A stretch of 64,000 nucleotides of DNA. Origin: an uncultured delta proteobacterium. GTDB lineage: Bacteria; Desulfobacterota; RBG-13-43-22. The translations under genes were made by a program, and so were the position numbers. This document shows, piece after piece, positions 38,807 through 59,894 of the stretch. Every line of letters starts with the position of its first letter. Position 1 is the stretch's first letter. The stretch covers positions 76,748 to 140,747 of the forward strand of contig CAVUPH010000012.1 of assembly GCA_963743305.1 (NCBI GenBank), in the 5' to 3' direction. The notes beneath the pieces were generated by a model. That model saw only the letters and a list, made by a program, of their open reading frames with translations, made no database searches and was not told where the DNA came from.

Positions 38807-40237
38807 ATGCACGTTACCAATAAAGACGTCATATTAGACGAACTGGTCTCTATCGTAGGAAAGGATAATGCCACGGCTGCGAAACACATCCGCTATGCCT
38901 ATTCCTACGATATGTCCTTCGTTACTCCTAAGATGCCCGACTATGTGGTCATGGCCACCACGGTGGAACAGATCCAGGCCGTCCTGAAAATGGCCAACCG
39001 GGAGAAGATCCCGGTGGTGCCCTACACGGCCGGAACCAACATCGGGGGTCTGACCATCCCGGAACGGGGCGGAATCATCCTGGATCTGAAACGGATGAAT
39101 AAGATCCTGAAAATCGACGTCGAATCCCATTATGCCGTGATAGAACCGGGGGTTTCCCATGGCCAATTGGCCAGCGCCCTCTATAAACATAACCTGCGCT
39201 TCGGCTGGCCGGTGGGTCCCCCCTCCGCCTCCGTATCCTCCTGCGCCATTTCCCACGGGATCGGGGGTTTAAACGCCCGCTACGGCTTGAACAGCCAGGA
39301 GATCACCAGTATGGAAGTAGTCCTGCCCACCGGCGAACTGGTGCGGGTGGGCTCCTGCGCCATTAACGCCGAGGCCTGGCATAGTGTGCTGCCCATGCCC
39401 CAACTGGACGGCTTGTTCAAAGGCTGGCTGGGAAGCACCGGCGTGGTCACCAAACTGGGAATCACCGTTCATCCCATTCCGCCGGTTTTGAAAGTCTTCA
39501 CCGTCTCCTGCGAGAACGTGGAAGACATGGTCTCCTACATGATGAATCTAAGCACCTATGAGATCTGTGACGACCTGACGGCTGTCTCCTGGTGGCTGGC
39601 CCAGGTGCCCATCCCTTATCCCCTCAAACCCAAACCCGATTCCGCCCCGGAATGGTTCAGTTTCGCCAATACCAATTCCTTTACCCAGAAGGAAAAGGAA
39701 GCCCGGGTGGAAATCTGGGAGACGGTGGTCGAGGAGGAGAAGAAGAAAGGGACCTCCCTCCAGGTAACCCAATACCCGGAAGAGGCCCTGCGGGCCCGGA
39801 CCCAACTGCCCAGCCAGATCGTGGGCTCCACCAAGAACTACTGCAAGCAGGGCGGCGCGGGCATTTCCTGGCCGGGCACCTTTACCCCGGCCAATAAATG
39901 GGCCCCGGTGTATAACGACTGGAAAAAAATCCTCATGGAGCACAACCTGTCCCCCTCGGTGCGCATGAGCATGTACCGGGGGGTCCACTACGGCATGCTC
40001 CGGGCCATGATTCCCTTCAATAAGAAAAGCCCCCAGGAAACGGAAAACGCCCGGCAGGCCATTGTCGAGTGTCTCAAGGTCGATCTGGATCACGGCGGCA
40101 TGCCCTACAAGCCCCCGGTGGACTTTGCCCGGGAGATCAACCAGCGGGCACATCCGGGGTACCTTTCCCTGCTTAGACAGGTAAAAAAGCTCCTGGATCC
40201 CAACGATATTATGAATCCCGGAAAGCTGGGAATATAG
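38807..40237 (+). CDS. FAD-binding oxidoreductase (GlcD/VAO superfamily)
   Basis: GTNIGG, LDLKRMN, IEPGV, EVVLPTGE, DPNDIMNPGK. Confidence 0.85.
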   Translation: MHVTNKDVILDELVSIVGKDNATAAKHIRYAYSYDMSFVTPKMPDYVVMATTVEQIQAVLKMANREKIPVVPYTAGTNIGGLTIPERGGIILDLKRMNKILKIDVESHYAVIEPGVSHGQLASALYKHNLRFGWPVGPPSASVSSCAISHGIGGLNARYGLNSQEITSMEVVLPTGELVRVGSCAINAEAWHSVLPMPQLDGLFKGWLGSTGVVTKLGITVHPIPPVLKVFTVSCENVEDMVSYMMNLSTYEICDDLTAVSWWLAQVPIPYPLKPKPDSAPEWFSFANTNSFTQKEKEARVEIWETVVEEEKKKGTSLQVTQYPEEALRARTQLPSQIVGSTKNYCKQGGAGISWPGTFTPANKWAPVYNDWKKILMEHNLSPSVRMSMYRGVHYGMLRAMIPFNKKSPQETENARQAIVECLKVDLDHGGMPYKPPVDFAREINQRAHPGYLSLLRQVKKLLDPNDIMNPGKLGI

Positions 40238-40361
40238 GTGCATCCATTTTTCTGAGAATTTGTATCTAACAATTAAACCGGACCCATCATTGCATCTCAC
40301 TATGGGTTTTTTATTTCAGCCAAAAATTTTAAAAGTTTTTGGCTAGGTATTGGAGGTTGGT

Positions 40362-41684
40362 ATGCATTGGAACATTCCTTCGCTGGAAGATCTGGAAGAC
40401 GCCATCTGGCGGTGCACGGCCTGCGGGACCTGTAAAGTAACCTACGAATACGGCCCTCCCTCCCGCTGTCGGGAAATCTGCCCTTCGGGGACGGAATTTG
40501 GCTTTGAAGGCTTTATGGCCTCCAAGGGAAAAATCGCCTTTGCCCGGGGAATCCTCAGCGGCGAACTGGAATGGGACGACGACCTGGCCGAGGCCGTTTA
40601 CCGCTGCACCCTCTGCGCCGGCTGTCAGACCCAGTGCCAGCTCGACCATAAGCCCCATATCCCGGAAATTTTTGAAGCCTTGCGACGGAAGGCCGTGGAG
40701 GCCGGCGCCGGCCCTCTGCCCCAGCAGAAGGTCATCGCCCAGTCGCTGAAGAGTTACGACAATCCCTACCAGGGCCCGCGGCGGGTCCGCTGGGACTGGA
40801 CCCGGCCCTTCAAAAAAGAAAAACGGCCCATCAAGGATATCAATAAGGAAGCGGCCCCGGTTTTGTACTTTGTGGGGTGTACCGGCGCCTACAACCTCCC
40901 GGCCCGAGTCCTGCCTCAGGCCACGGCCTCGGTCTTTCAGAAACTGGGGGTGGATTTCGGCATCCTGGGTGAAAACGAACTCTGCTGCGGCTCAACGGCC
41001 ATGCGGTTGGGAGATGCCGAGGCCTTTAAACGGGTGGCCGAAGCCAATCTGCAGACCTTTAAAACACTGCATGAAACTCGGGGGGTGGAGACGATCGTCA
41101 CCGCCTGCGCCGGCTGCTACCGGGCCATCCTCAAGGATTATTCCCTGGCCGATGAATACGAAGACCTGATGAAGGGAATTCGAGTCATCCATGTGACGCA
41201 GTTTCTCAGCGGACTGCACCAGGCCGGTCGACTGACTTTTTCCCGGCCGGTCCCCATGAAAGTCACCTACCATGACCCCTGCCACGCGGGCCGGCATTTG
41301 ACCAAATACCTGGTGGACGAAGACGGCTCCCAGCTCTGGCCCGGGGCCTATATCAACCTGAACGAAGAGGACTGCCTGTACGATATTCCCCGGGACCTTT
41401 TGAAGGCCATTCCCGGCATCGAGCTGGTCGAGATGGAACGGACCCGGGCCAATTCCTTCTGCTGCGGAGGCGGCGGCGGGGTCATGACCGGCTTTCCGGA
41501 CTGGGCCCAGCGCAATGCCGCCCTTCGCGTCCAGGAAGGGTTGGAAACCGGCGCCGAACATATGGTCTCCATCTGCCCTTTCTGCCATTTTAATTTGAAC
41601 CAGGGCGCCCAGGCCATCGGCAGCACCATGAAACTTTACGATCTGATCGAGTTGATTGACCAGGCGCTTCCCGAAAAGTCATAA
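40362..41684 (+). CDS. GlcF/HdrD-like Fe-S CCG-domain protein
   Basis: CTACGTC..CP, CTLCAGCQTQC, CCG, YHDPCH, CCGGGGG. Confidence 0.88.
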   Translation: MHWNIPSLEDLEDAIWRCTACGTCKVTYEYGPPSRCREICPSGTEFGFEGFMASKGKIAFARGILSGELEWDDDLAEAVYRCTLCAGCQTQCQLDHKPHIPEIFEALRRKAVEAGAGPLPQQKVIAQSLKSYDNPYQGPRRVRWDWTRPFKKEKRPIKDINKEAAPVLYFVGCTGAYNLPARVLPQATASVFQKLGVDFGILGENELCCGSTAMRLGDAEAFKRVAEANLQTFKTLHETRGVETIVTACAGCYRAILKDYSLADEYEDLMKGIRVIHVTQFLSGLHQAGRLTFSRPVPMKVTYHDPCHAGRHLTKYLVDEDGSQLWPGAYINLNEEDCLYDIPRDLLKAIPGIELVEMERTRANSFCCGGGGGVMTGFPDWAQRNAALRVQEGLETGAEHMVSICPFCHFNLNQGAQAIGSTMKLYDLIELIDQALPEKS

Positions 41685-41822: not shown

Positions 41823-43139
41823 ATGGAAACCAAAAAAGGTACGCCGGCAGAACAGAATAATGAACCCCAAGGGGTCAATCGTCGTGATTTTTTAAAGACC
41901 ACCTTGGCCGGGGCGGCAGGACTCTCCCTGAGTTCCTGGGTGGTTACTCCGTTCACCTACGGAGCTGAAAAACCAATTAAAATCGGCATGATCAATGAGT
42001 TGACTGTGGGGGCCACCGAATATGGCTATTGGTTGTCCAAAACCGGCCATGCCGCCATCAAGAAACTTAATGCCGAAGGCGGCATTGCGGGACGTAAAGT
42101 TGAAATAATCGAGTACGACACCAAGTTCAACCCGGCCCAAGGGGCCCAGATGTTCAAGAAGCTGGCCCTGGAAGATAAGGCGGATTTTATCATGGGGTCT
42201 ATCCATTCCGGAATTCAACTAGCCTGTTTCCCTCTGGCCGAACAGTTCAAGATCCCCTACTTCGGCGGCGGGGCCATGGCTTCTGCTTTGACCGGAAAGG
42301 CGGCCGTTCCCTACTACATCCGTATCCACACCCATGCCCTGATGCAGGCCGTGGCCGGCTGGGAATGGGCCTTCAAAAATCTGGGTAAAAAATGGGCTTT
42401 GGTGGTGGCCGATTATGCCTGGGGCCATTCACTGGAAGAAGAGTTCGGCAAACGGGTCCAGGCGGCAGGAGGCAAGGCCCAAGGGATCCGCGCCCCCCAG
42501 ACCACCAAGGATTTCATCCCCTTCCTGCAGAAAATCGACCCGGATATCGACGTCCTGTTTACCGCCTTCCTCAATCCGGCCGCCCTGGGCGTCATGCGCC
42601 AATCCGTAGAATTGGGGCTGCATAAGCGGATGAAGCGCTTTACCGTCATCTGCTGCACCGAGGGCATCAGCCAGGAGGTGGTCGGGAAAGAATCCGCCGG
42701 GGCCTATTATGAGGAATACCATCCCCGTTATTTCAACCAGGTGCCAAAGGAACTTCAGGTCTATGAGCGGGCCTACCGCCAGGCCGTGGGGGTCACCGAC
42801 GACGGAAAAGACACCAAGGATCCCAAGATCACTTCGGCCCACTCCCACATGTGGTCCATGTGGACCTCTCCCTACATGATTAAATTGGGGGTGGAACAGA
42901 CGGGTTGGAAAGACGCCTCTAAAAACGCCGATTTTATCAAGGCCGTGGTTAAGATGAAGCTCAAGGCCGGGCCCTGGACCCCCCAGGGTGATTTAATTAT
43001 GCGGGAAGAAGATCATCAGGGCTTTCACGATCATTACATCTCGGAAGTGACGCCGGACTTGAAACTGAAGGTCCTGCTGCGCATCCCTAAAGAAAAAGTC
43101 ATGTATGAACCGCAGGTTGATTTGAGGACCAAGCTCTAA
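41823..43139 (+). CDS. Branched-chain amino acid-type ABC substrate-binding protein (Tat signal)
   Basis: NRRDFLK Tat motif; NAEGGIAGRKVE; DYAWG. Confidence 0.88.
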   Translation: METKKGTPAEQNNEPQGVNRRDFLKTTLAGAAGLSLSSWVVTPFTYGAEKPIKIGMINELTVGATEYGYWLSKTGHAAIKKLNAEGGIAGRKVEIIEYDTKFNPAQGAQMFKKLALEDKADFIMGSIHSGIQLACFPLAEQFKIPYFGGGAMASALTGKAAVPYYIRIHTHALMQAVAGWEWAFKNLGKKWALVVADYAWGHSLEEEFGKRVQAAGGKAQGIRAPQTTKDFIPFLQKIDPDIDVLFTAFLNPAALGVMRQSVELGLHKRMKRFTVICCTEGISQEVVGKESAGAYYEEYHPRYFNQVPKELQVYERAYRQAVGVTDDGKDTKDPKITSAHSHMWSMWTSPYMIKLGVEQTGWKDASKNADFIKAVVKMKLKAGPWTPQGDLIMREEDHQGFHDHYISEVTPDLKLKVLLRIPKEKVMYEPQVDLRTKL

Positions 43140-43163
43140 TCGCCGAGCCTTTAGCCTATTGTC

Positions 43164-43203
43164 GACCGGTTTCCCTTTCCCGCCCGGGGGAGAGAAACCG
43201 GTC
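43164..43203 (+). other. Intercistronic stem-loop after the binding-protein gene
   Basis: GACCGGTTTC...GAAACCGGTC. Confidence 0.5.
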
Positions 43204-43231
43204 TCAACCCGTCCCTAAGGAGTTGCCCACC

Positions 43232-44083
43232 ATGCTTTCCAATGTAGCCGTGGCGGTTATAAACGGCGTCATCTGGGGTTTGATCATGGCCCTCATCGCC
43301 CTGGGTTTGAACATGATTTTCGGCCTGCTGCACATTATCAACATGGCCCACGGAGTCCTCTACATGCTGGGGGCCGTGGTGGCCTGGTATATTATCAATC
43401 TGACCGGCAACTTCTGGATCGCCCTGATCCTGGCCCCGGTTGTAGTCGGGGTGATCGGGATGGCCATAGAGCGGGGGCTCCTCCGCACCATTGAAGACCA
43501 GCCCATCACCACCATCATCTGCACCTTCGGCATCATGCTGGCCGCCCAGCATCTGGTCTTCATGACCTTTGGGGGCACACCCCAACGGATCAATATTCCC
43601 ATTGAGGGACGATTTCAGCTTTTTCAATTGCAATATCCCCTGATGCGGGTGGTCATCGCCGCTATCTCCATCGGGGTCATGATCGCCCTTTGGTTTCTCT
43701 TAAACAAGACCAAGTACGGGCTCTGGATGCGGGCCGTAGTCCAGGACCGAGAGATGGCCGTGGGCATCGGAATTCCGGTACACCGGGTCTATATGTGGAC
43801 CTTTGTCCTGGGATCGGCCCTAGCGGCCTTCTCCGGAGTTTTGGCGGCCCCCATTGTCTATGTGGATTTCATGATGGGCCGGGAAATCCTGATCATGGCC
43901 TTCATCATCGTCATCGTGGGGGGCATGGGAAATCTGGAGGGATCGGTCCTGGCAGCAATTATTATCTCCCTGATCCAGGGGGTGGGCTCGTTATTCGTTC
44001 CACCGGCCATGGCTACCGTCTTTGCCCTGGCCTTCATGATCATTGTCCTTTTGTTTCGCCCTCAAGGGCTTTTTGGAGAATAG
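43232..44083 (+). CDS. LivH-type ABC permease
   Basis: ALGLNMIFG..INMAHG; RPQGLFG. Confidence 0.9.
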   Translation: MLSNVAVAVINGVIWGLIMALIALGLNMIFGLLHIINMAHGVLYMLGAVVAWYIINLTGNFWIALILAPVVVGVIGMAIERGLLRTIEDQPITTIICTFGIMLAAQHLVFMTFGGTPQRINIPIEGRFQLFQLQYPLMRVVIAAISIGVMIALWFLLNKTKYGLWMRAVVQDREMAVGIGIPVHRVYMWTFVLGSALAAFSGVLAAPIVYVDFMMGREILIMAFIIVIVGGMGNLEGSVLAAIIISLIQGVGSLFVPPAMATVFALAFMIIVLLFRPQGLFGE

Positions 44084-44092
44084 AGGTCGGTC

Positions 44093-45043
44093 GTGTCCGG
44101 TCATCCGCAAAAATCAACCGGGTTTATCCTGGGTTTCTCGATGGTACTCTTGGTCCTGATCGCTGTGCCTTTTTTTATGGGGCTCTTTTACCAAACCTTC
44201 CTGACCGAAGTGCTGGTTTGGGTCCTCTTTGCCGTCTCCTTTGACCTGATCTTCGGCTATACGGGCCTGCTCAGTTTCGGACAAGCCCTTTTCTTTGGTC
44301 TGGGGGCCTATTGCATCGCCATCCCCGTTTCGAAATTCGGCCTGGGACCTGCACCGGCTTTTATGCTTTCCATCGTGGTCCCCATGCTCTTTGCCTGGTT
44401 TGTGGGCTATTTTTCCGTAAAACTGTCCGGGATCCACTTTGTTATTATTACCCTGATCTTTGCCCTAATCGGCAGCACCATCGGGGAAACCTGGCCTTCC
44501 CTGACCGGCGGCGCTGACGGTCTGACCATCCCCCTCAGCCCCCTGCAAATAGGCCCTTTAAAAATCGATTTCGTCGATATCAAGACCAACTATTATCTGG
44601 TCCTCATCGTGGTGGCCCTCTGCTTCCTGTTGTTGAGACGGATGGTGCAGTCGCCCCTGGGCAAGGTCTTTATCGCCATTCGGGAAAACGAGGATCGAGC
44701 TCGACTGATTGGCTACAATGTCCAGCGCTACAAGCTGCTGGCCTTCGTAATTGCCGGCGGTCTCAGCGGCCTAGCCGGAGGGTTGTACGGAATTACCTTG
44801 AAGTACGCCTCAGCCAATTTTCTACACTGGGGGGTCTCCGGCCACGCGGTCGTCTATACCATTGTGGGAGGCATGGGGACCCTTTTCGGGCCGGTGTTGG
44901 GAACGGCTATCATCATGTCGCTGGAACATTATTTGGTAGACTACATGCAGGGCACCGACCTGGTGATCGGGATGGTCCTGGTCTTTATGGTGCTGGTCGC
45001 CCCCAAGGGTCTGGTGGGTCTCCTGCAAAGAAAAGGGAAATAA
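44093..45043 (+). CDS. LivM-type ABC permease
   Basis: GYTGLLSFGQ, TGGADG, AIRENE. Confidence 0.9.
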   Translation: MSGHPQKSTGFILGFSMVLLVLIAVPFFMGLFYQTFLTEVLVWVLFAVSFDLIFGYTGLLSFGQALFFGLGAYCIAIPVSKFGLGPAPAFMLSIVVPMLFAWFVGYFSVKLSGIHFVIITLIFALIGSTIGETWPSLTGGADGLTIPLSPLQIGPLKIDFVDIKTNYYLVLIVVALCFLLLRRMVQSPLGKVFIAIRENEDRARLIGYNVQRYKLLAFVIAGGLSGLAGGLYGITLKYASANFLHWGVSGHAVVYTIVGGMGTLFGPVLGTAIIMSLEHYLVDYMQGTDLVIGMVLVFMVLVAPKGLVGLLQRKGK

Positions 45044-45796
45044 GTGAACCCAGCAGCTCCGGAATCCATTTTGACGGTAGAGGAGGTCAGCAAGTCCTTC
45101 GGGGGTCTGCTGGCCATAAACAATGCCCATCTTTCCGTAAAGAAGGGGGAACTGCGGGCTTTGATCGGACCGAACGGGGCCGGCAAAACGACCCTGCTCA
45201 ATCTGATTACCGGCATTTACCCGGTCTCCCGAGGACAGATCTATTTCAAGAATGAAGAAATTACCCATCTGACCCCGGATCGGATTTCCCGCAAGGGGAT
45301 TTCCCGGACCATGCAGATCACCAGTCTGTTTTCCGGGTTGACGGTATTTGAAAATATCTGGGCGGCGGTCCAGTCCCGGAAGAAATTCTTCAATCCCTTT
45401 ATTCGGGCCTCTAAATGTCAGGATGTCCGGGACAAGACGCATCAGATGCTGGAACTCACCGGGCTTCAGGACAAGGCCGACCTGATCTGTTCCGAACTGG
45501 CTTACGGGGAACAGCGCATCCTGGAAATGGGCATCGCCCTGAGTACCAGCCCCGACCTGCTCCTGCTTGATGAGCCCACGGCCGGCCTGAATACCCAGGA
45601 GTCCATGGCCTTGGTCAGAAAAATGAGAACCATGCTTTCCGGCCAGACCATTGTACTGGTGGAACACGACATGGGGGTCGTAATGGAACTGGCCGACCGG
45701 ATTTCGGTGCTTCATTACGGGGAAATCTTGGCCGAAGGCGCCCCGGATGAAATCAGGAATAACGAAGAGGTAAAAAAAGTCTATTTGGGGCATTAG
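45044..45796 (+). CDS. LivG-type ABC ATPase
   Basis: GPNGAGKTT, LDEPTAG, VEHDM, YLG. Confidence 0.92.
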   Translation: MNPAAPESILTVEEVSKSFGGLLAINNAHLSVKKGELRALIGPNGAGKTTLLNLITGIYPVSRGQIYFKNEEITHLTPDRISRKGISRTMQITSLFSGLTVFENIWAAVQSRKKFFNPFIRASKCQDVRDKTHQMLELTGLQDKADLICSELAYGEQRILEMGIALSTSPDLLLLDEPTAGLNTQESMALVRKMRTMLSGQTIVLVEHDMGVVMELADRISVLHYGEILAEGAPDEIRNNEEVKKVYLGH

Positions 45797-45797
45797 T

Positions 45798-46499
45798 ATG
45801 TTAACCATGAAAGAAGTGAACTGTTTTTACGGAAAAAGCCATGTCCTAAACGACACCTCCCTGAAGATTCGGGAAAAGGAACTGGTGGGCCTGGCCGGGC
45901 GTAACGGGGTCGGTAAGACCACCACACTGAAAGCCATTATGGGCCTGGTCCCGCCCAAAAGCGGCGAGGTCCGTTTTGACCAATGCACCCTTTCCAAATT
46001 GCCGGCTTATCAAGTCCCCCGCCAAGGCATTGCTTATGTCCCCCAGGGGCGACACCTTTTCCCCAAATTGACGGTCATGGAGAACCTTCGGATCCCTATC
46101 GTCCAGGGGACCTTCGATCCCGACGCGCTGGAAGAAGTCTTTGACTACTTCCCCCGTTTAAAGGAAAGGCTCAAACAAAAAGCCGGCACCCTTTCCGGAG
46201 GGGAACAGCAGATGTTGGCCGTCGGTCGGGCACTGATCATCAAGCCCCGATTGATTTTGTTGGATGAGCCTACGGAAGGACTCATGCCTTTGCTGGTTCA
46301 GGCCATCAGCCAGACCGTAAAAGCCATCAACGCCAAAGGAACCACAATCCTGCTAGTGGAACAGAACCTCAAAACCTTGAAAGACGTTTGTCATCGTATT
46401 TATATTATGGAAAAAGGCTCCATTGTTTATCAGGGGACCCCGGCTGACCTGGAGGCCGCCCCGGAGATCCAGGATCGTTATTTGAGTGTCAAAGTCTAG
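45798..46499 (+). CDS. LivF-type ABC ATPase
   Basis: GRNGVGKTT, LSGGEQQ, VEQN. Confidence 0.92.
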   Translation: MLTMKEVNCFYGKSHVLNDTSLKIREKELVGLAGRNGVGKTTTLKAIMGLVPPKSGEVRFDQCTLSKLPAYQVPRQGIAYVPQGRHLFPKLTVMENLRIPIVQGTFDPDALEEVFDYFPRLKERLKQKAGTLSGGEQQMLAVGRALIIKPRLILLDEPTEGLMPLLVQAISQTVKAINAKGTTILLVEQNLKTLKDVCHRIYIMEKGSIVYQGTPADLEAAPEIQDRYLSVKV

Positions 46500-47349
46500 A
46501 TTTTTACATCCGTTGTTCGAGACAATTTCTCAGAACAATGGATGTAAAAATCTACGTGGGAGTACGTTCGTTATTAAAAAATCTTCATACTGGGTCCTGG
46601 TCGGTCTGGCCCTTATTCTGGCAGGGCGCCTGGAAGCAGAGGAATTCGGGATCGTTCACTTCAAAAACCAGGAATTTCTGGTTAAGCGCGATCCCCTGAG
46701 CCGAAGTCCGGTGATTATTAGGGGGAAAGACCGGCCGATCATCACCCTGAAAGGGGCACTAACCCGTTCCCGGGTTGTTCAAAGCGGCGCCTTGGTCGCT
46801 GATCGACTAAACCCGCTGCTTCCACTCACCGCGAAGCAGATCAAATTTAAATCCGCCGAGAAGATCGACGGCCTTTGGTATGTCAGCTTCTGGCAGACCG
46901 CCGGGGGCCTTATCGTTTTTGGATCGTCGTTGGGTTATAGTGTGGACCGCAGGGGGCGTATCCTCTCCACCGGATCGGTCATTTACCCGGCCATTGAGGT
47001 CCCAACCGCCGTCAAGGTTGATCGGAAGGCGGCTTTGGAAACATCGACACGGTCCATTAAAAATTTTCAGACACTGAAATATAAACTCTTCGCCGAGAAT
47101 GTCATCATCTATCCGGATCGGAAGGCCAACCCTGTTCGGTTTTATCAGGTTTACGCCTTCAACTTTTTCCCTCCTGCGGAGGCCCTGCACCCGGCTTCAG
47201 CGGAAGCGGGTTGGGGTATTTTCGTAGATACCCAGACCGGAAAGATCGTGGATCGCCAGACTCTTTTTAAACCCTTGGGCTGTTGTGTCCCGGAGGAAGG
47301 CCCTCCCCTGGACACCCAAGAACTTTATAAATCTCAAATCGGAAAATAA
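46486..47349 (+). CDS. Exported protein resembling a stand-alone FTP/PepSY propeptide (true start probably downstream)
   Basis: Signal-like segment; YVSFWQ..GLIVFG (FTP-like); IFVDTQTGKIV (PepSY-like); no HExxH. Confidence 0.55.
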   Translation: MSKSRFLHPLFETISQNNGCKNLRGSTFVIKKSSYWVLVGLALILAGRLEAEEFGIVHFKNQEFLVKRDPLSRSPVIIRGKDRPIITLKGALTRSRVVQSGALVADRLNPLLPLTAKQIKFKSAEKIDGLWYVSFWQTAGGLIVFGSSLGYSVDRRGRILSTGSVIYPAIEVPTAVKVDRKAALETSTRSIKNFQTLKYKLFAENVIIYPDRKANPVRFYQVYAFNFFPPAEALHPASAEAGWGIFVDTQTGKIVDRQTLFKPLGCCVPEEGPPLDTQELYKSQIGK

Positions 47350-47374
47350 TTACCAGCAAGGAGGAAATTTCGCC

Positions 47375-48388
47375 ATGACTTTAAAAGAACGGGTGCTGAA
47401 CCGTCTTCAGGGAAAAGAAGTGGACAAAACCCCGGTGGGGTGTACGACAACCTACGGGGTGGTGGATTTCATGAAAAAATGCGGCTTCGAGCGACCCCAG
47501 GCCGATACCGATCCGCTGGCCATGACCGAACTGGCCATGGCCGGGCACACCTATGGCGGCTTCGAGTGGGTCAAAGCCATGGGTTGGGACATCGTGGCCT
47601 TGAGTGAGGCCCTGGGCTGCGAGTTGGGAACACCGCGGATCGACCGGCAGTATTATATCAATTCCTTCCCCTACGCGGAAGGAGTGGATCGTCTGGAATT
47701 CCCCTCCGACTTCCTCTCCCGCGGCCGCTTCCCGGCTTTTAAAGAACATCTGAAACTCCTTAAAGATCGGGTGGGCGATCGGATGGCCATTTTCGGTGAA
47801 ACCGAAGGGGCCTTTACCTCTGCCGCCAATCTGGTGGGTCCCGAACAATTTATCAAATGGGCCATCAAAAAGCCCGATCAGGTGGCCAAAACGTTGGAAG
47901 TCACCAAACAGGCGGCCGTCGCCGCCGCCAACTTTGCCTTTGATAACGGAGTTGATTTTTTCGTCTTTGCCGAACCGACTTCCGGACCGGCCCTGCTGAA
48001 TCCCCGGATCTATGAGAAGCTGGTGTTGCCCGTGGAAAAAGAGATCGTCAGCCAAATCAAAGGTCCGGTGGTGTTGCACATCTGTGCCGATACCGATCCG
48101 ATTATGGATTTCATGTGTCAGACCGGAGCGGCCGGGATCAGTATCGAGGAAAAGGCCGATTTGAAGCGGGCCGTGGAAATCGCGCATCGCTATGGAGTCA
48201 AGGTCTTCGGCAATGTGGCCACGGCCACCACCATTTTTAACGGCACTCCGGAGGAGGTTTACCGGGAAGCGATCACCGCCCTCACCCATGGGACAGACTT
48301 CCTTTGCCCGGGTTGCGGCATCGCCCCCGGCTCTCCGCTGGAAAATATCGTCCAGATGAAAAAGGCCCGGGATGATTTTTTTAAATAG
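47375..48388 (+). CDS. MtaA/CmuA (URO-D fold) corrinoid methyltransferase 1
   Basis: EALGC, LHICAD, GNV and PGCGI Zn motifs; GGAGG RBS. Confidence 0.88.
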   Translation: MTLKERVLNRLQGKEVDKTPVGCTTTYGVVDFMKKCGFERPQADTDPLAMTELAMAGHTYGGFEWVKAMGWDIVALSEALGCELGTPRIDRQYYINSFPYAEGVDRLEFPSDFLSRGRFPAFKEHLKLLKDRVGDRMAIFGETEGAFTSAANLVGPEQFIKWAIKKPDQVAKTLEVTKQAAVAAANFAFDNGVDFFVFAEPTSGPALLNPRIYEKLVLPVEKEIVSQIKGPVVLHICADTDPIMDFMCQTGAAGISIEEKADLKRAVEIAHRYGVKVFGNVATATTIFNGTPEEVYREAITALTHGTDFLCPGCGIAPGSPLENIVQMKKARDDFFK

Positions 48389-48427: not shown

Positions 48428-49109
48428 ATGGCTTCAGAAGAAAGAACCCAAGAGATCATAAAGGGACTTCAGCAGGCGGTAATTGAGTTTGACGAGGACA
48501 AGACCAGGGAATTGGCGCAGGCCTCCATCGATGAAGGGGTGGATCCTTTTCTGGCCACCATGGAAGGTCTGGCTGAAGGAATGATTCAGGTGGGCGATCT
48601 GTATAATAAAAAAGAGTACTTTGTCTCGGAACTCCTGTTGTGCGCCGACGCCCTTTATGCGGGATTGGACTTACTCAAACCGGCTATTGTGGCCTCCGGA
48701 AGAATCAGTGAGGCCAAAGGCTCCATCGTGCTTGGGAGTGGTGGAAGGCGATGTCCACGACATCGGTAAGAATTTGATCAAGATGATGTTCGATGTGGCC
48801 GGCTGGACCGTCTACGATCTGGGAAAGGATGTTCCTTTGGAAAAATTCGTCGAAGAACAACTGCGGACCGATTCGGATATCGTCGGTCTTTCGGCGTTGA
48901 TGACCACCAGCATGATCAGCATGCCGGAAATCGTCAAGAAGCTGAAAGAGAAAAATCCCAAGGTTCGGATTATGCTGGGCGGCGCTCCGATAACGCCGGA
49001 AACCGTGGAAAAGTACGGCGCCGACGGGTACGCCAAGGACGCGGGGACGGCCGTTGATGAAGCCATCAAATTGATTAAAATGTTGAGGACCGAGGAAAAG
49101 ACCAAATAG
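48428..49109 (+). CDS. Methyltransferase cognate corrinoid protein (MtaC-like), +1 frameshift near 48733
   Basis: Cap domain GLAEGM..VG..Y..EYFV.ELL, then GDVHDIGKN, SALMTT, GGAP, GADGY. Confidence 0.88.
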
Positions 49110-49124: not shown

Positions 49125-52100
49125 ATGGCGAGTGGTGAAAGTGAAAAATGCCTGGTCATTTTTCAGCCCTCAGGATGCCGAGGATATGTCGATAGAGGCA
49201 AGACCCTTAAACAGGCCTCCGTGGCCCTGGGCGTGGATATCGAGGGGGTCTGCGGTGAACAGGCCATTTGCGGAACCTGCAAGGTCCGGATTGAGGAAGG
49301 GGAATTTGAAAAGTACGGTATCCGTTCCGGCCGGGAGAGCATCTCGGCTATGGGCCCCTCTGAAAGAAAATTTTTTAATTTGCGCCAGGTGGATGAAGGC
49401 TATCGTCTGGCCTGTCAGGCCCAGATCCTGGACGACGTGGTTATTTTCGTCCCGGAAGAAAGCCGCATGGGGAAGCAGGTGGTCCGCAAGGCCGCTACCT
49501 CGCGGCCCATGGCCGTCAAACCGGTGGTCCGAAAATATACCCTGTCCCTGGTCAAAGCCACCCTGGAGGATAATGTCGGAGACTGGGAACGGGTGACCGC
49601 GGCCCTGGAGACCCAATACGGGCTCAAGGACCTGACCATCGATTATGAAGCCCTCATGTTCTTGCAGGACCTGGTCCGGCAAGGAGAGTGGAAGATTACC
49701 GTTTCGGTCTGGCACGGCCAGGAGGTCATCCGGGTTGAGCCGGGGTTTAATGAAAAAGGCTACGGCCTGGCGGTCGACGTGGGCACCTCCACGGTGGCCG
49801 GATATCTATGTGATCTGTCCGACGGCACGGTGGTGGCCACCGCCTCCATGATGAATCCCCAGATCGTCTACGGGGAAGATGTCATGTCCCGGATCAGCTA
49901 CACCATGACCAATCCCGAAGGTCTGGAGATCTTAAACCAGGCCATTATCGACGGCCTGAACAATATCGCCGCCGAGGTGGCCGAAAGCGCCGGCATCAAA
50001 CGCCAGGATATCCTGGATATGTCCCTGGTGGGCAATACCTGTATGCATCATATTTACCTGAACATCAATCCCCGCTATATCGGTCGTTCCCCCTTTCCCC
50101 CCAGTCTACATCATTCCCTGGACGTCAAGGCGCGCGATTTCGGCTTCAAGATCCCCCAGGAAAAAGAGCGGGAAGAGAAGGGCAAGTACGCCCCTTGTCG
50201 GGTGGAATGTCCGGCCGGGGTCAATGTAGACGACTTTTTATATCTCATCGCCCAACGCAAATTTAAGGAGGCCCTGGAATTGGTCCGCCTTTCCTACCCC
50301 TTTCCCGGGGTCTGCGGACGGGTCTGCACCCATCCCTGTGAACAAATTTGTGAAAGGGGAAAAGTGGATGAGCCCATCTCCATTCGGGCGGCCCATCGTT
50401 TCCTGGGCGATTTTGAATTGACTGCGGGAAGGGAAAAGGCTACTCCGGTGGAACTGAAAAAAGAGGCCCCCATCGCCGTGGTCGGATCAGGACCGGCCGG
50501 TCTGGCCTGTGCCTATGACCTGATCAATCGAGGATATCCGGTAACGGTTTTTGAAGCCCAGTCCCAGGCCGGAGGAATGATGCGTTACGGCATCCCGGAA
50601 TATCGGCTGCCTAAACGTATTTTGGATGATGAAATCCGTTATATTGAAGAACTGGGCCTGGAGATCAGGACCAATACCCCGGTAAAAAACCTGAAGGATC
50701 TTTTCGATCAGGAGTATAAAGCCGTCTTCCTGGCCACCGGGACCTGGAAAAGTCAAAAATTAAATGTTCCCGGTGAGGAAAGCCCGGGGGTGATGATGGC
50801 CCTCGACCTGCTCCGGGAGGTCAATTCAGGGGCGAAGGTCGAATTAAGCGGAAAAGTAGCCGTGGTCGGAGGCGGCAGCGTGGCCGTTGACGCGGCTCGA
50901 ATGGCCCAACGGCTAGGTGCCCGGGAAGTCCATCTGATCTGCCTGGAGTCCGACGACCTCACCTGCCAAGACCGGATGCCGGCCCAGGATTTGGAAATCG
51001 ACCAGGCCCGCGAAGAGGGTGTGATCGTTCATCCCTCTCTGGGCGTCGGCACCATCGTGGTCGACCAAGGCCGGGTCAGCGCCGTGGAAACCATAGGCTG
51101 TGTATCGGTCTACGATGACCGGGGACGGTTCGCGCCGCAGTTTTCCGAAGAACCGGCTCTCCCTATTGCCGTGGAGACCGTCATTGTGGCCATAGGCCAG
51201 AGGGCCGAAGAAGATCTCTTTCCCGATTTGGCCCGCCAGCCTTCGGGCATCTTCCAGGTGGATGAAAACACCTTTGAGACCAGTGTCCCGGGCGTCTTTG
51301 CCGGCGGAGACGGGGCCAGCGGACCGGCCAATGTCATCCAGGCCGTTCGAGCCGGCAAGGAAGCGGCCATCTCCATTGAACTTTATCTGACCGGAAAGGA
51401 CATGAAGGAAGACCGCCCTAAAGCGCTCAAGGCCGTAGAAGAAATTCCCAAAGAAGGGGTCAGGAAAGAAGCCCGACAGATGGCCCCCGTACTCGCCCTG
51501 GATAAGCGTCAGGGCTTTGACGAGGTGGAAATGGGCTTTGAAGAAGCCCAGGTGATTCCGGAGGCGATTCGCTGCCTCCATTGCGCCGTTTATGCCCAGA
51601 AGGAGGCCTCCGAAGAAAAAGAGGCCCATGGCTGGGGGATCAAGATCGCCCCCGGAGCCTATGTCCATTGCCTGCCGATTGAGGCCGGCTTTGTGGGCGC
51701 CGATAATGTGGGCGTGCTGATTGCCGAAGCCCCTTATCATCAGGACTCCCTGGAGCTGATCATCGATATCGGCACCAACGGAGAAATCATCCTGGGCAAT
51801 AAGGACCGCTTGATCTCCGCTTCCTGCGCCACCGGACCGGCCTTTGAGGGAGCCCAACTGCGTTTCGGTATGCGGGCCGCACCGGGGGCCATTGAAAAGA
51901 TAGCGATCGATAAAGAAACCAAGGAAGTGCGTTTTAAGGTCATCGACGAATCCCGCTGGAACACCGAAATGAAACCGGAGGAAATCAAGGCCAAGGGCAT
52001 TTGCGGATCGGGGATCATCGACGCCCTGCCTCAGCTCTTCCTGGCCGGGGTTATCGACAAATCCGGAAAGTTTAATAAAAATATGGAACACCCCCGCTTA

Positions 52101-52577
52101 CGCTATTCAGGGGATCAATATGAGTATGTCATCGCCTGGGCCCAGGAGACCTCCATCGGCCAGGACGTGGTCGTCTGTCAGGACGACATCCGGGCCATCC
52201 AGCTCGGTAAGGCGGCCATGTACGCCGGCAGCCGAATCCTCATGGAAACCCTGGGTATCGAAAAAGTGGACAAGGTCATATTAGCCGGGGCCTTCGGAAG
52301 CTACATCGACAAACTATCGGCGGCCGTGCTGGGAATGTTCCCGGATTGCGACCCCCAGAATGTCTATTCCGTGGGCAACGCCGCCGGTGACGGGGCCCGG
52401 ATGGCCTTGCTCAATGCGGACAAACGTCTGGAGGCCGATAACTATGCCCGGAAGGTGGAATACATCGAATTGACCCTTTCTCCGAAATTCGAAAAGATGT
52501 TCGCCCATTCCATGTGGATTCCGCACATGAAGGATGCCTTCCCCAACCTGCAGGAATTCCTGCCACCCAAGAAATAA
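49125..52577 (+). CDS. Reductive activator of corrinoid enzymes (2Fe-2S + ASKHA, DUF4445) with inserted GltD/NfnB-like Fe-S flavoprotein module
   Basis: CGEQAICGTC..LACQ; DVGTST; GEDVMSRI; insert APCRVECP..CGRVCTHPC..GSGPAG..GGGSVA..AGGD..RCLHC; then GFVGAD, DIGTNGE, GPAFEG, GICGSG, AGAFG, GNAA. Confidence 0.9.
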   Translation: MASGESEKCLVIFQPSGCRGYVDRGKTLKQASVALGVDIEGVCGEQAICGTCKVRIEEGEFEKYGIRSGRESISAMGPSERKFFNLRQVDEGYRLACQAQILDDVVIFVPEESRMGKQVVRKAATSRPMAVKPVVRKYTLSLVKATLEDNVGDWERVTAALETQYGLKDLTIDYEALMFLQDLVRQGEWKITVSVWHGQEVIRVEPGFNEKGYGLAVDVGTSTVAGYLCDLSDGTVVATASMMNPQIVYGEDVMSRISYTMTNPEGLEILNQAIIDGLNNIAAEVAESAGIKRQDILDMSLVGNTCMHHIYLNINPRYIGRSPFPPSLHHSLDVKARDFGFKIPQEKEREEKGKYAPCRVECPAGVNVDDFLYLIAQRKFKEALELVRLSYPFPGVCGRVCTHPCEQICERGKVDEPISIRAAHRFLGDFELTAGREKATPVELKKEAPIAVVGSGPAGLACAYDLINRGYPVTVFEAQSQAGGMMRYGIPEYRLPKRILDDEIRYIEELGLEIRTNTPVKNLKDLFDQEYKAVFLATGTWKSQKLNVPGEESPGVMMALDLLREVNSGAKVELSGKVAVVGGGSVAVDAARMAQRLGAREVHLICLESDDLTCQDRMPAQDLEIDQAREEGVIVHPSLGVGTIVVDQGRVSAVETIGCVSVYDDRGRFAPQFSEEPALPIAVETVIVAIGQRAEEDLFPDLARQPSGIFQVDENTFETSVPGVFAGGDGASGPANVIQAVRAGKEAAISIELYLTGKDMKEDRPKALKAVEEIPKEGVRKEARQMAPVLALDKRQGFDEVEMGFEEAQVIPEAIRCLHCAVYAQKEASEEKEAHGWGIKIAPGAYVHCLPIEAGFVGADNVGVLIAEAPYHQDSLELIIDIGTNGEIILGNKDRLISASCATGPAFEGAQLRFGMRAAPGAIEKIAIDKETKEVRFKVIDESRWNTEMKPEEIKAKGICGSGIIDALPQLFLAGVIDKSGKFNKNMEHPRLRYSGDQYEYVIAWAQETSIGQDVVVCQDDIRAIQLGKAAMYAGSRILMETLGIEKVDKVILAGAFGSYIDKLSAAVLGMFPDCDPQNVYSVGNAAGDGARMALLNADKRLEADNYARKVEYIELTLSPKFEKMFAHSMWIPHMKDAFPNLQEFLPPKK

Positions 52578-52591
52578 GGAGGAACAGTCAT

Positions 52592-53623
52592 ATGGGAATA
52601 GAAATGAGTGCCAGAGAACGGGTCCTCAAGCTTTTTAAAAAAGAAAAAGTCGATCGCCTGCCGATCTTCAGCGGCATGGGAAATATCACCGTTACGGGTC
52701 TGGAACCCACCCAGTGGAACTTTGCTGAACTGCATCTGGATGCGGAAAAGATGGCTAAAATAGCCGCCTCGACTTCACGGTTGTTTGGTTTTGAATGCGC
52801 GGTGGTCCCTTTTGATATGGGGGTGGAGGCCGAGGCCTTGGGGGCGGGAGTTAATTATTATGCCCATCGCACCGATATCGTCTACCCGACGATTACCAAA
52901 AAATTGGCTGACAAGTTCGATGACTTGAAGATTCAGATACCGGACTGGTCAAAAGCCGGAAGAATTCCTTTGGTAGCCAAGGCCATTCAGCGATTAAAAG
53001 AGGAAGTAGGGGATACCTTGGCCATAGGGGCTTGGGTCCTCGGTCCTTATACCTTGGCCGCTCAGTTGACCGATATGGGAGACCTGGCCAAAGCCGCTCT
53101 GAAGAAGACCGCCCAAGTGGAGGAGGTCTTAATGCAACTGGCCGAGGCGATTATTCAAATAGCCCGAATCTACCGACAGGCGGGCGCCGATTATATTACC
53201 GTCCGGGAAATGGGCGGCGGACCGGATATTATCAGCCCCCGAATATTCAAGAAATTAATTCAGCCCCCCTTGGCCAAAATATTTGCCGCCCTGGAATCAC
53301 CCAAGATCCTGCACATCTGCGGCAGCACCGATATGATTATTGAACAGATGGCCGAGTGCGGGGCCGACGGCTTGAGCGTAGATCAGAAGAACACCCTGGC
53401 TGAAACCAGGAATAAAATCGGATCGGAGATGCTCCTGTTCGGCAACTTTGACCCCTATGGGACCCTGGTTACGATGAACGCCGAGGAAGTGGATCAAGTC
53501 GTCAAAAACTGTTTCGAGGCCGGGATCAACGCCCTCTGGCCGGGATGTGATCTTTGGCCGGATTTAAAAAAAGAGAACTTTCAGGCCCTGATGGCCGCCG
53601 CCCTGAAATATGGGAAACAATAA
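52592..53623 (+). CDS. MtaA/CmuA (URO-D fold) corrinoid methyltransferase 2
   Basis: PFDMGVEAEALG, GRIP, LGPYTLA, LHICG, PGCD. Confidence 0.88.
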   Translation: MGIEMSARERVLKLFKKEKVDRLPIFSGMGNITVTGLEPTQWNFAELHLDAEKMAKIAASTSRLFGFECAVVPFDMGVEAEALGAGVNYYAHRTDIVYPTITKKLADKFDDLKIQIPDWSKAGRIPLVAKAIQRLKEEVGDTLAIGAWVLGPYTLAAQLTDMGDLAKAALKKTAQVEEVLMQLAEAIIQIARIYRQAGADYITVREMGGGPDIISPRIFKKLIQPPLAKIFAALESPKILHICGSTDMIIEQMAECGADGLSVDQKNTLAETRNKIGSEMLLFGNFDPYGTLVTMNAEEVDQVVKNCFEAGINALWPGCDLWPDLKKENFQALMAAALKYGKQ

Positions 53624-58922: not shown

Positions 58923-59894
58923 CTAGGTCTTACATTGATTGAGGTACCGATCCACGATCATCTCGGAAATCGAGTAAGGATCGGTTTTCTTGTGTACCAG
59001 GCCTTCCAGATACTGTTCCCACTGGCCGGTCTTTTCCAAATAGTCCATAATCGTCCGGATCACGTCCTGCTTAATTAGATCCAATAGTTCCATTCGGGCC
59101 CGATCCATCTCGAATTGCGTCAGGATGGCCGGATCCTTTTTAAAGAGAAAGTCGCGGTGCGCCTCGATCCCGGCCATCAATTCCGCCACCCCCTCATTTC
59201 TCACAGCCTCGGTCTTAAATATCGTCGGGGTCCAGCCGCCTTTCGCCTGCCGGTCCTTGTCCATCTCGATCATCATCATCAATTCCTGACGGGTCTTATC
59301 GGCTCCTTCGCGATCGGCCTTGTTGATGACAAATACATCACCGGCTTCCAGGATACCGGCCTTGATGGCCTGAATATCGTCGCCCATGCCGGGGATCAGG
59401 ACGATCAGGGTGGTGTGGGCGGCCCGGACGATCTCCACTTCATCTTGCCCTACGCCTACCGTTTCCACCAGGACATAATCCTTGCCCATGGCATCCAGGA
59501 CCGCTATGGCCCCGCGGGTAGACGGAGTCAGCCCCCCGAAGTGCCCGCGGGTGGCCAGGCTGCGGATGAAGACCCCCTCGTCGGTGCTGTGGCGCTGCAT
59601 ACGGATCCGGTCCCCCAGGATGGCCCCGCCGCTGAAGGGACTAGTGGGATCCACCGCCAGCACCCCCACGGTTTTCCCCCGGCTCCGCAAATGCTGGATC
59701 ATCCGGTCCACCAGGGTACTCTTGCCCACCCCCGGGGAACCGGTGATGCCGATGACATAGGCTTTTCCGGTATGAGGATAGAGTTCCTTCAGCATTTCCC
59801 GGGCCTGGGGCATGTGGTCATCGATATCGCGAATCAGCCGGGCGACGGTGCGCATGTCACCGGCCAGGATTTTTTCGGCCCATTCACTGCTCAT
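58923..59894 (-). CDS. meaB: MeaB/ArgK mutase chaperone GTPase
   Basis: [39 protein letters not shown]. Confidence 0.95.

Follow-up and report, generated by a model that had tools for sequence, protein, structure and literature searches.

The stretch of DNA considered here, called the window below, comprises 64,000 nucleotides from an uncultured delta proteobacterium (GTDB Desulfobacterota; RBG-13-43-22; assembly GCA_963743305.1, contig CAVUPH010000012.1, positions 76,748-140,747 of the forward strand), and coordinates count from its first letter. It carries a gene for a RACE-type corrinoid reductive activase in which the ASKHA adenosine triphosphatase (ATPase) domain is interrupted by a complete flavin- and iron–sulfur (Fe-S) module of the GltD/NfnB kind. 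The encoded protein, P0001, is probably an ATP-dependent corrinoid activator with its own built-in NAD(P)H electron-input module, through which electrons would flow towards the corrinoid. As the initial annotation had stated, the frame at 49125-52577 on the plus strand is open throughout, giving a single uninterrupted reading frame of 1150 amino acids (aa), and a Shine-Dalgarno-like AAGGAG precedes its ATG. The gene and its parts are as follows, with flavin adenine dinucleotide abbreviated to FAD and the per-residue confidence of the structure model (predicted local distance difference test) to pLDDT.

49125..52577, plus strand: whole gene for the RACE-type corrinoid reductive activase with inserted GltD/NfnB-like module (P0001, 1150 aa), identified from the open frame, the domain scan and at least 119 other full-length clusters.
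49125..49469, plus strand: N-terminal, plant-type [2Fe-2S] ferredoxin domain, residues 1-115 (Fer2 at 22-100; Cys43, 49, 52 and 97), aligning with the N-terminus of RACo.
49497..49754, plus strand: linker domain of the RACo type at residues 125-210 (82.5 bits with Pfam RACo_linker, cut-off 26.2).
49761..50159, plus strand: ASKHA ATPase part 1, residues 213-345 (Raco_middle, profile positions 1-133 of 163), with the phosphate-1 motif D218VGTST.
50136-50153, plus strand: first junction copy, DFGFKI, at the end of ASKHA part 1.
50160..50423, plus strand: start of the insert, a linker (345-351, pLDDT < 50) and then a Fer4_20 Fe-S domain without its first element (Fer4_20 at 346-433, profile positions 20-110, 76.4 against 25.8).
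50472..51356, plus strand: the two Rossmann domains of the insert, for FAD and NAD(P)H (residues 450-744 by Pyr_redox_2, 111.4 against 26.1; FAD motif G454SGPAG).
50868..50972, plus strand: pyridine-nucleotide site G582GGSVA...EVHLIC606-L-E608-SDDLTC614QD, with CLE and a five-residue insertion instead of YRR; beta-strand 601-605 of the model comes just before.
51507..51590, plus strand: displaced first Fer4_20 element, residues 795-822, with R816CLHC820 (profile positions 2-29, E-value 6.3e-4, below the cut-off).
51600..51647, plus strand: second junction, a low-confidence linker (residues 826-835, pLDDT < 50) and the copy GWGIKI (51630-51647), bridged by record 27 of public run X3.
51630..52550, plus strand: ASKHA ATPase remainder, residues 836-1142 (end of Raco_middle, and RACo_C_ter at 877-1142 with 316.7 bits), aligning with RACo 335-629.

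In the domain scan, Fer2, RACo_linker, Raco_middle, Fer4_20, Pyr_redox_2 and RACo_C_ter all exceeded their curated Pfam cut-offs, and the order along the chain is the [2Fe-2S] domain, the RACo linker, ASKHA part 1, a GltD/NfnB-like module of 490 aa (residues 346-835) and the remainder of the ASKHA domain. Raco_middle matches P0001 in two stretches, residues 213-345 and a later one, and the ASKHA remainder holds the phosphate-2 motif D881IGTNGE together with A1054GAFG. The features that define RACE proteins are therefore present, namely a four-cysteine [2Fe-2S] N-terminal domain and the linker, middle and C-terminal ASKHA domains with their nucleotide motifs. The NCBIfam models for AcsV (NF040756, matching in two stretches, 420.3 against a cut-off of 800) and RamA (TIGR04270, 114.8 against 500) stay below threshold, which places P0001 in the RACE family but makes it neither AcsV nor RamA. 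For the insert, PRK12771 'NAD(P)-binding protein' matches residues 341-820 below its cut-off, and the score with the TIGR01316 equivalog is 287.9, where 471.75 would be required.

The motifs named in the initial annotation were all found, i.e., APC358RVEC362P, C397GRVC401THPC405EQIC409, G454SGPAG, G582GGSVA, C606LES and R816CLHC820. The insert combines a Fer4_20 domain with a two-Rossmann flavoprotein fold, as in GltD, NfnB and dihydropyrimidine dehydrogenase (DPD), and it departs from the canonical order of these proteins, in which RCLxC comes first. The 'closing RCLxC' had been placed correctly at the C-terminal end of the insert, and its nature can now be stated more precisely: it corresponds to the first element of the Fer4_20 domain, moved to the far end. 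By the order of its elements, the insert is circularly permuted, the RCLxC element with two presumed cluster cysteines being supplied from its C-terminal end. A chain of NfnABC (9bov_A) is collinear with the insert over query residues 356-823 (E-value 8e-100) and likewise has RCLxC after its flavin domains, which indicates that the permutation predates the insertion. In the nearest modules found in other proteins, the start of Fer4_20 is equally shortened, and their partners are DHO_dh, CCG, Fer4 dicluster or further FAD domains. Two module ends that lie together would suit insertion into another domain.

The cofactor ligands are strongly conserved in the fused family, here P0001 together with 119 full-length clusters described below. 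The [2Fe-2S] cysteines Cys43, Cys49, Cys52 and Cys97 are kept in 119-120 of the 120 members; in the insert, Cys358, Cys362, Cys401, Cys405, Cys817 and Cys820 are present in 120/120 and Cys409 in 119/120, with Cys397 in only 77/120. In NfnB and DPD, one of the ligands of the two [4Fe-4S] clusters is not a cysteine. The seven conserved cysteines of the insert fit two predicted [4Fe-4S] clusters with one non-cysteine ligand. Among 35 aligned members, the FAD motif and the GGGxxA motif of the insert are invariant (G454, G456, P457, G459, E477, G483, G484, R487, G727 and G728 being invariant residues), and so are the ASKHA motifs DVGTST, DIGTNGE and AGAFG, including D218, G220 and T223.

The fold was examined with an AlphaFold2 model built from a 52-row alignment, which has a mean pLDDT of 87.1 and a predicted template modelling score (pTM) of 0.58; pLDDT falls below 50 only in residues 1-5, 345-351 and 826-835, the last two being the junction linkers. 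In Foldseek comparisons, the model matches RACo (3zyy_X) over 1145 alignment columns (E-value 9.5e-48, target-normalised TM-scores of 0.73-0.87). The insert superposes on the NfnABC/StnABC modules 9bov_A, 8oh5_C and 9n5u_A with a root-mean-square deviation (rmsd) of 2.6-3.5 Å over 488-508 columns, followed by NfnB, GltD and DPD with 2.3-3.7 Å; StnC/NfnABC/NfnB modules occupy ranks 2-5 and 9-12 with an rmsd of 2.3-3.5 Å. A predicted-complex run of the [2Fe-2S] domain (1-115) with the insert (346-835) scored 0.10 against a mark of 0.32 and speaks neither way.

The insertion site can be located by comparison with RACo. RACo (PDB 3zyy_X, 631 aa) aligns with query residues 11-328 (chain 6-322) and again with 839-1141 (chain 335-629), with a phmmer E-value of 3e-102. 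The alignment on both flanks means that about 12 RACo residues (323-334) have been replaced by a module of about 490 aa. The duplication suspected at the junctions is real, DFGFKI (338-343) standing before the insert and GWGIKI (836-841) after it; ARDFGFKI precedes the module, GWGIKIAPGAYV follows it, and the ASKHA domain resumes with PGAYVHCLPIEAGFVGAD from residue 843, as had been read initially. In uninserted relatives (n = 6, 46-55% identical), this region is a single continuous 'KARDx-G(I/L)xIxPxxxVHxLP', while P0089, a family member with 64% identity, has RDWGLKIAPEA and RDIGIKIAPGA at its two junctions.

The architecture is found elsewhere. A word-indexed search of 5.8 billion proteins gave 5226 with an E-value <= 0.001 among 7997 scored, and 120 clusters were listed. 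At least 119 other clusters share the full Pfam architecture, with lengths of 1097-1188 aa and 60-98% identity; these 119 and P0001 form the 120-member set, from which P0054, an 859-aa partial sequence, was excluded. Source names among the listed clusters include Deltaproteobacteria, Desulfobacteraceae, Chloroflexota and Peptococcaceae, and genome records with the fused gene come from a Thermodesulfobacteriota bacterium (88% identity), a Desulfobacteraceae bacterium (71%), a Syntrophales bacterium (63%) and a Dehalococcoidia bacterium (60%). A copy from the same genus is 98% identical to that of the window. In an exhaustive search of 50%-identity representatives, only P0089 was fused, the remaining top matches covering the RACE parts or the insert alone; a single fused representative at this level indicates a compact family. 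In two genomes the fused gene lies in two pieces, corresponding to query residues 1-606 and 680-1150 in G258 (L096/L097) and to 1-681 and 677-1150 in G229 (L095/L098), the latter piece with 7 stops.

An assembly chimera was considered and rejected, because at least 119 clusters share the architecture, contigs run over both junctions and the AlphaFold2 model is confident apart from the two junction linkers. The junctions were checked with contigs of other public runs: record 9 of X2 corresponds to 50010-50213 and record 27 of X3 to 51516-51666. One RNA-library run (X20) yielded a contig at 51979-52246 with 8 differing letters and another at 52282-52516 with 2, which is not proof of transcription.

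In a FastTree phylogeny of the RACE parts only, with 120 fused proteins and 10 unfused outgroup proteins, the fused proteins form one clade with a support of 0.988. The inserts behave differently in module-only trees (16 fused inserts and 31 other modules), where they fall into two groups split by starred branches with modules of unrelated proteins between them, CLE-group and YRR-group inserts not being each other's nearest relatives. An approximately unbiased test of one clade gave p 0.019 (LG+G4), for a clade that was named after the tree had been seen. Between the two groups, inserts are 48-53% identical, compared with 70-73% for the RACE parts. This pattern would be explained by either cassette exchange within the fused family or faster evolution of the insert, and the permuted GltD cassette may be an interchangeable part for electron input, replaced at least once in the history of the family.

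The two groups take their names from the pyridine-nucleotide site. The NADPH-specifying YRR is missing from P0001: in alignments to all five best solved relatives, CLES lies opposite YRR, with a gap of 5-6 residues facing DDLTC. Glu608 is aligned with the second Arg of YRR in 5/5 solved NADP(H)-type relatives, and it lies about 21 residues past the GxGxxA motif, directly beyond beta-strand 601-605 of the model. In the classical Rossmann fingerprint, an acidic residue at this position favours NAD(H). At positions 606-608, the 120 aligned members have YRR (61), CLE (58) or SLE (1), and most CLE forms also have the five-residue insertion xDLT(C/S) and GGGSVA in place of GGGNAA. In the tree of RACE parts, CLE is nested, one clade comprising 56 CLE, 1 SLE and 8 YRR proteins, with 2 CLE proteins elsewhere; the earliest fused branches carry YRR, so that YRR is ancestral and the CLE form of the window derived. 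The initial suggestion that CLES in place of YRR hints at NADH holds up, given the position of Glu608 in all five alignments and the conservation of CLE in 58/120 members. With YRR replaced by CLE plus five residues, NADH is more likely than NADPH to be the donor for the protein of the window.

The genes around the activase gene are the following.

41823..46499, plus strand: Liv-type ABC transporter upstream (binding protein with Tat signal, two permeases, two ATPases).
46486-47349, plus strand: 287-aa open reading frame with a hydrophobic N-terminal segment, between the transporter and methyltransferase genes.
47285..48388, plus strand: MtaA-like (URO-D family) corrinoid methyltransferase (PRK06252, 300.6 against 244; TIGR01463, 245.8 against 235.4; homology from about 47375).
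48428..49109, plus strand: corrinoid protein gene (B12-binding_2 and B12-binding), the presumed client, in two frames with an extra base at about 48730-48738.
52514..53623, plus strand: second MtaA-like (URO-D family) methyltransferase (PRK06252, 262.7 against 244; homology from about 52601).

RACE proteins are encoded with their clients, and here the corrinoid-protein gene ends 16 bases 5' of the activase gene. In the window and in loci L002, L003, L090, L091, L092 and L093, the fused gene has a corrinoid-protein gene and genes for URO-D/MtaA-like methyltransferases on its flanks; in L004 the corrinoid protein is farther away, and in L001 and L094 the flanks end early. An MtrH-type methyltransferase occurs in 4/9 fused loci, and among the neighbours examined no second flavoprotein or NuoE/F-like gene was seen beside the fused gene. 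In the window, the corrinoid-protein gene has one extra base (+1 frameshift) that is missing from 8/8 relatives, including a same-genus relative at 96.6% identity, and the gene has a single frame in L001-L004. Either an assembly error or a recent inactivation would account for this frameshift; no contig of the public runs covers 48682-48822, the best runs containing only 0.20-0.22 of the sampled words.

The Liv-type transporter possibly takes up the substrate of the cluster, as its position suggests. For the 287-aa frame at 46486-47349, no Pfam or NCBIfam family was found, and tblastn (E <= 1e-10) gave no match in loci L001-L004. Just upstream of the transporter, at 38807-41684 on the plus strand, lies a FAD-linked oxidase (FAD_binding_4/FAD-oxidase_C) followed by a CCG/Fer4_8 protein, a pair that resembles glycolate or D-lactate dehydrogenase. 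A further B12-related gene of the window, for a MeaB-like GTPase (methylmalonyl-CoA mutase chaperone family), is located a few kilobases downstream at 58923-59894 on the minus strand.

In the genome to which the window belongs (4.9 Mb, 43 contigs), the fused gene occurs once, alongside two unfused RACE genes that are intact and two RACE-like genes that are interrupted; a split version of the system is encoded there as well.

Contig C28, locus L089 4999-16118, minus strand: operon of URO-D, MtrH, GltD-like protein (653 aa), URO-D, corrinoid protein, RACE (686 aa), DUF6951 and CobW.

The interrupted RACE-like genes, at C14:401297-403118 and C33:130346-131896, are broken by TGA/TAG codons in frame or by changes of frame. 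In the operon, the stand-alone GltD-like protein begins with a NuoF-type [4Fe-4S] domain, carries YRR and has RCLRC near its C-terminus, by which it is of the same permuted kind as the insert, and the URO-D protein encoded after it is 40% identical to the second MtaA-like protein of the window. In 400 other genomes of the phylum, 7/29 best loci of this GltD-like protein have MtrH and/or URO-D flanks, and all five extended loci from other genomes, which belong to two families of the phylum, add a corrinoid protein and a RACE; a similar pair occurs in the genome of L003. Identity between the stand-alone protein and the insert is only 35%, compared with 45-51% for modules of unrelated proteins, and for this reason the fusion and the operon pairing look like separate recruitments. 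As donor of the insert it was rejected on the same identities and on its position outside those modules in the tree.

The mechanism proposed from these observations starts with NAD(P)H, which would pass a hydride to the FAD of the inserted module. Single electrons would then move from FAD through the two [4Fe-4S] clusters of the insert to the N-terminal [2Fe-2S] cluster. From this cluster, with ATP being bound and hydrolysed in the ASKHA domain, they would pass to Co(II) in the adjacent corrinoid protein, and the Co(I) thus regenerated would serve the two MtaA-like methyltransferases of the cluster. We infer this direction and path, as well as the nucleotide preference and the independence from ferredoxin or flavodoxin. 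Support for the self-sufficient, NAD(P)H-coupled activator put forward in the initial annotation comes from the conservation of the cofactor motifs, from the neighbouring genes and from the operon with the unfused version. The potential of NAD(P)H is about -320 mV. It has been reported that the [2Fe-2S] cluster of the O-demethylase activating enzyme of A. dehalogenans has a potential of -330 mV and that the Co(II)/Co(I) couple moves from -530 to -250 mV with activating enzyme and ATP; the donor of the activator is named in the available text of the same paper only as 'e.g., ferredoxin or flavodoxin' (PMC6739815). On these values, NAD(P)H is in range. Moreover, in the part of PMC7483475 that was available, recombinant StnC is reported to bind FAD and oxidise NADPH.

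Several findings weigh against an activator with a built-in NAD(P)H input. The fusion is rare: in searches that scored only the two best candidates per genome, it was found in 8/401 sampled genomes of the phylum, its own included (outside its own genome, 5/13 in the family of the window, 1/11 in family f12 and 1/246 elsewhere), and in 1/301 sampled genomes of the class of L004 (Dehalococcoidia by record title), namely in the genome of L004 itself. The split form is uncommon as well: of the 80 best genome loci, 76 hold an unfused RACE, and 0/76 of these have a GltD-like gene in the flanking sequence that was fetched. The stand-alone GltD-like family is widespread (244/401 genomes at E <= 1e-120), and with just 7/29 best loci in corrinoid operons most of its members have another function. 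The pTM of 0.58 makes the relative placement of the domains in the model uncertain. If the frameshift of the corrinoid protein is real, the system may be inactive in the organism of the window. Finally, the closest solved relatives of the module are electron-bifurcating enzymes, which makes a more complex electron flow conceivable. In an Nfn-type mode, which we regard as distinctly unlikely, the FAD of the insert would bifurcate or confurcate, sending one electron of NAD(P)H along a high-potential route and the other along a very low-potential route via the [4Fe-4S] clusters, a second redox partner (ferredoxin or another acceptor) would be needed, and the role of ATP would be reduced or different. 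The best structural matches of the insert are all bifurcating enzymes (9bov_A, 9n5u_A and 8oh5_C; NfnB 4ylf_B and 5jca_L), and the predicted set of FAD, two [4Fe-4S] and one [2Fe-2S] mirrors NfnB plus the cluster of NfnA as given in the accessible portion of PMC7483475; however, GltD and DPD have this fold without being bifurcating enzymes, a high-potential acceptor is not evident, neither a second flavoprotein nor a NuoE/F-like partner gene was seen beside the fused gene, and the invariant ASKHA motifs argue for retained ATP coupling. It is very unlikely, though conceivable, that flavin-based bifurcation and ATP hydrolysis act together in one polypeptide to reach the Co(II)/Co(I) couple, the FAD splitting the electrons of NADH so that one goes to the [2Fe-2S] cluster and the other, at very low potential, through the [4Fe-4S] pair to Co(II).

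The module might also have a task other than electron input, either as a sensor of NAD(P)H/NAD(P)+ that gates the ATPase or as the catalyst of an unrelated redox step within the pathway, with the electrons for repair coming from ferredoxin or flavodoxin. Ordinary RACE proteins function with no module of this kind (76/80 best loci are unfused), and numerous partners unrelated to one another carry the permuted cassette (DHO_dh, CCG and Fer4 dicluster domains). This explanation is nevertheless unlikely, as all redox ligands are kept in 119-120 of 120 members whereas a sensor could do without some of them, as the cluster (methyltransferases, corrinoid protein, transporter) encodes no other obvious redox reaction, and as the split operon likewise pairs an oxidoreductase with RACE and a corrinoid protein. 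A decaying remnant, in which the frameshift of the corrinoid protein would be real and the intact activase would have no working client in this organism, is distinctly improbable: the extra base that splits the corrinoid-protein gene and is missing from 8/8 relatives, as well as the fused genes in two pieces in G229 and G258, would agree with decay, but the 1150-aa frame is intact and 98% identical to the same-genus copy, and a single-base indel in a 43-contig draft genome is as easily an assembly error.

The activator with its own NAD(P)H input would matter in several respects. The natural fusion points to NAD(P)H as the donor for at least one branch of RACE, and the independent operon pairing does likewise. 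With the fusion, assays and structure determination could address the entire path from hydride donor to Co(I) within one protein, and the sister forms with YRR and CLE are a natural experiment on cofactor specificity. The permuted cassette, which is also attached to partners of the DHO_dh, CCG, ferredoxin and NuoG-like kinds, exemplifies an electron-input module that can be inserted, and a self-sufficient activase, if confirmed, could allow corrinoid methyltransferase biocatalysis without artificial reductants.

As to whether the architecture had already been characterised, a full-text literature search, with subscription journals and supplements outside its reach, returned no description of the fusion or of a GltD-like gene in corrinoid operons. 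None was found in the available text of PMC10418091, PMC6739815, PMC7483475, PMC11206085 and 10.1101/2023.09.08.556235 either; the supplements, i.e., the RACE tree of PMC10418091 and the StnC motifs of PMC7483475, may bear on this point. The mlp gene clusters described in the preprint PMC10418091 comprise MtaA-like proteins, a corrinoid protein and a Ram/RACE activase and, as far as the main text goes, share their gene kinds with the window (several MtaA-like URO-D proteins, one corrinoid protein and one bacterial-type RACE). That main text mentions no flavoprotein insert in the activase and contains 'glutamate synthase' and 'oxidoreductase' 0 times.

RACo (AcsV) from Carboxydothermus hydrogenoformans (3ZYY; complex 4C1N) and the activating enzymes of bacterial O-demethylases have the same [2Fe-2S] domain, linker and ASKHA ATPase as P0001 and are also encoded beside a corrinoid protein. 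Compared with RACo, P0001 adds a module of 490 aa at the RACo loop 323-334, and in place of CoFeSP it has a small MtaC/MtbC-like corrinoid protein as presumed client. NfnB/SudA, GltD and the N-terminal half of DPD have the same fold as the insert and the set of FAD, NAD(P)H and two [4Fe-4S] clusters that is predicted for it, whereas the canonical members begin with RCLxC. Pyridine-nucleotide-driven reduction of Co(II) corrinoids via flavins is also known from methionine synthase reductase, from flavodoxin with its reductase and from PduS-type cobalamin reductases, the last also using Fe-S clusters. These enzymes have unrelated folds and no ATP-driven ASKHA step, the reactivation of MetH being pulled by S-adenosylmethionine. 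The closest solved relative of the insert is the StnC/NfnA module of Bfu-type StnABC (8OH5) and NfnABC (9BOV, 9N5U), which has the same permuted order. Where the initial annotation had pointed to insertions in HdrA-type proteins, the StnC/NfnA module is the analogue that the comparisons demonstrate. According to the available part of PMC7483475, the module in StnC/NfnA lies, as in P0001, downstream of an N-terminal [2Fe-2S] domain within a larger protein. By its Pfam domains, P0001 has no NuoG-like domain, and no NuoE/F-like gene occurs among the examined neighbours, which sets it apart from a Bfu-type large subunit. The StnC/NfnA proteins continue into a NuoG-like domain, work with NuoE/F-like subunits and carry YRR, while in P0001 the module sits in an ASKHA host and carries CLE plus five residues.

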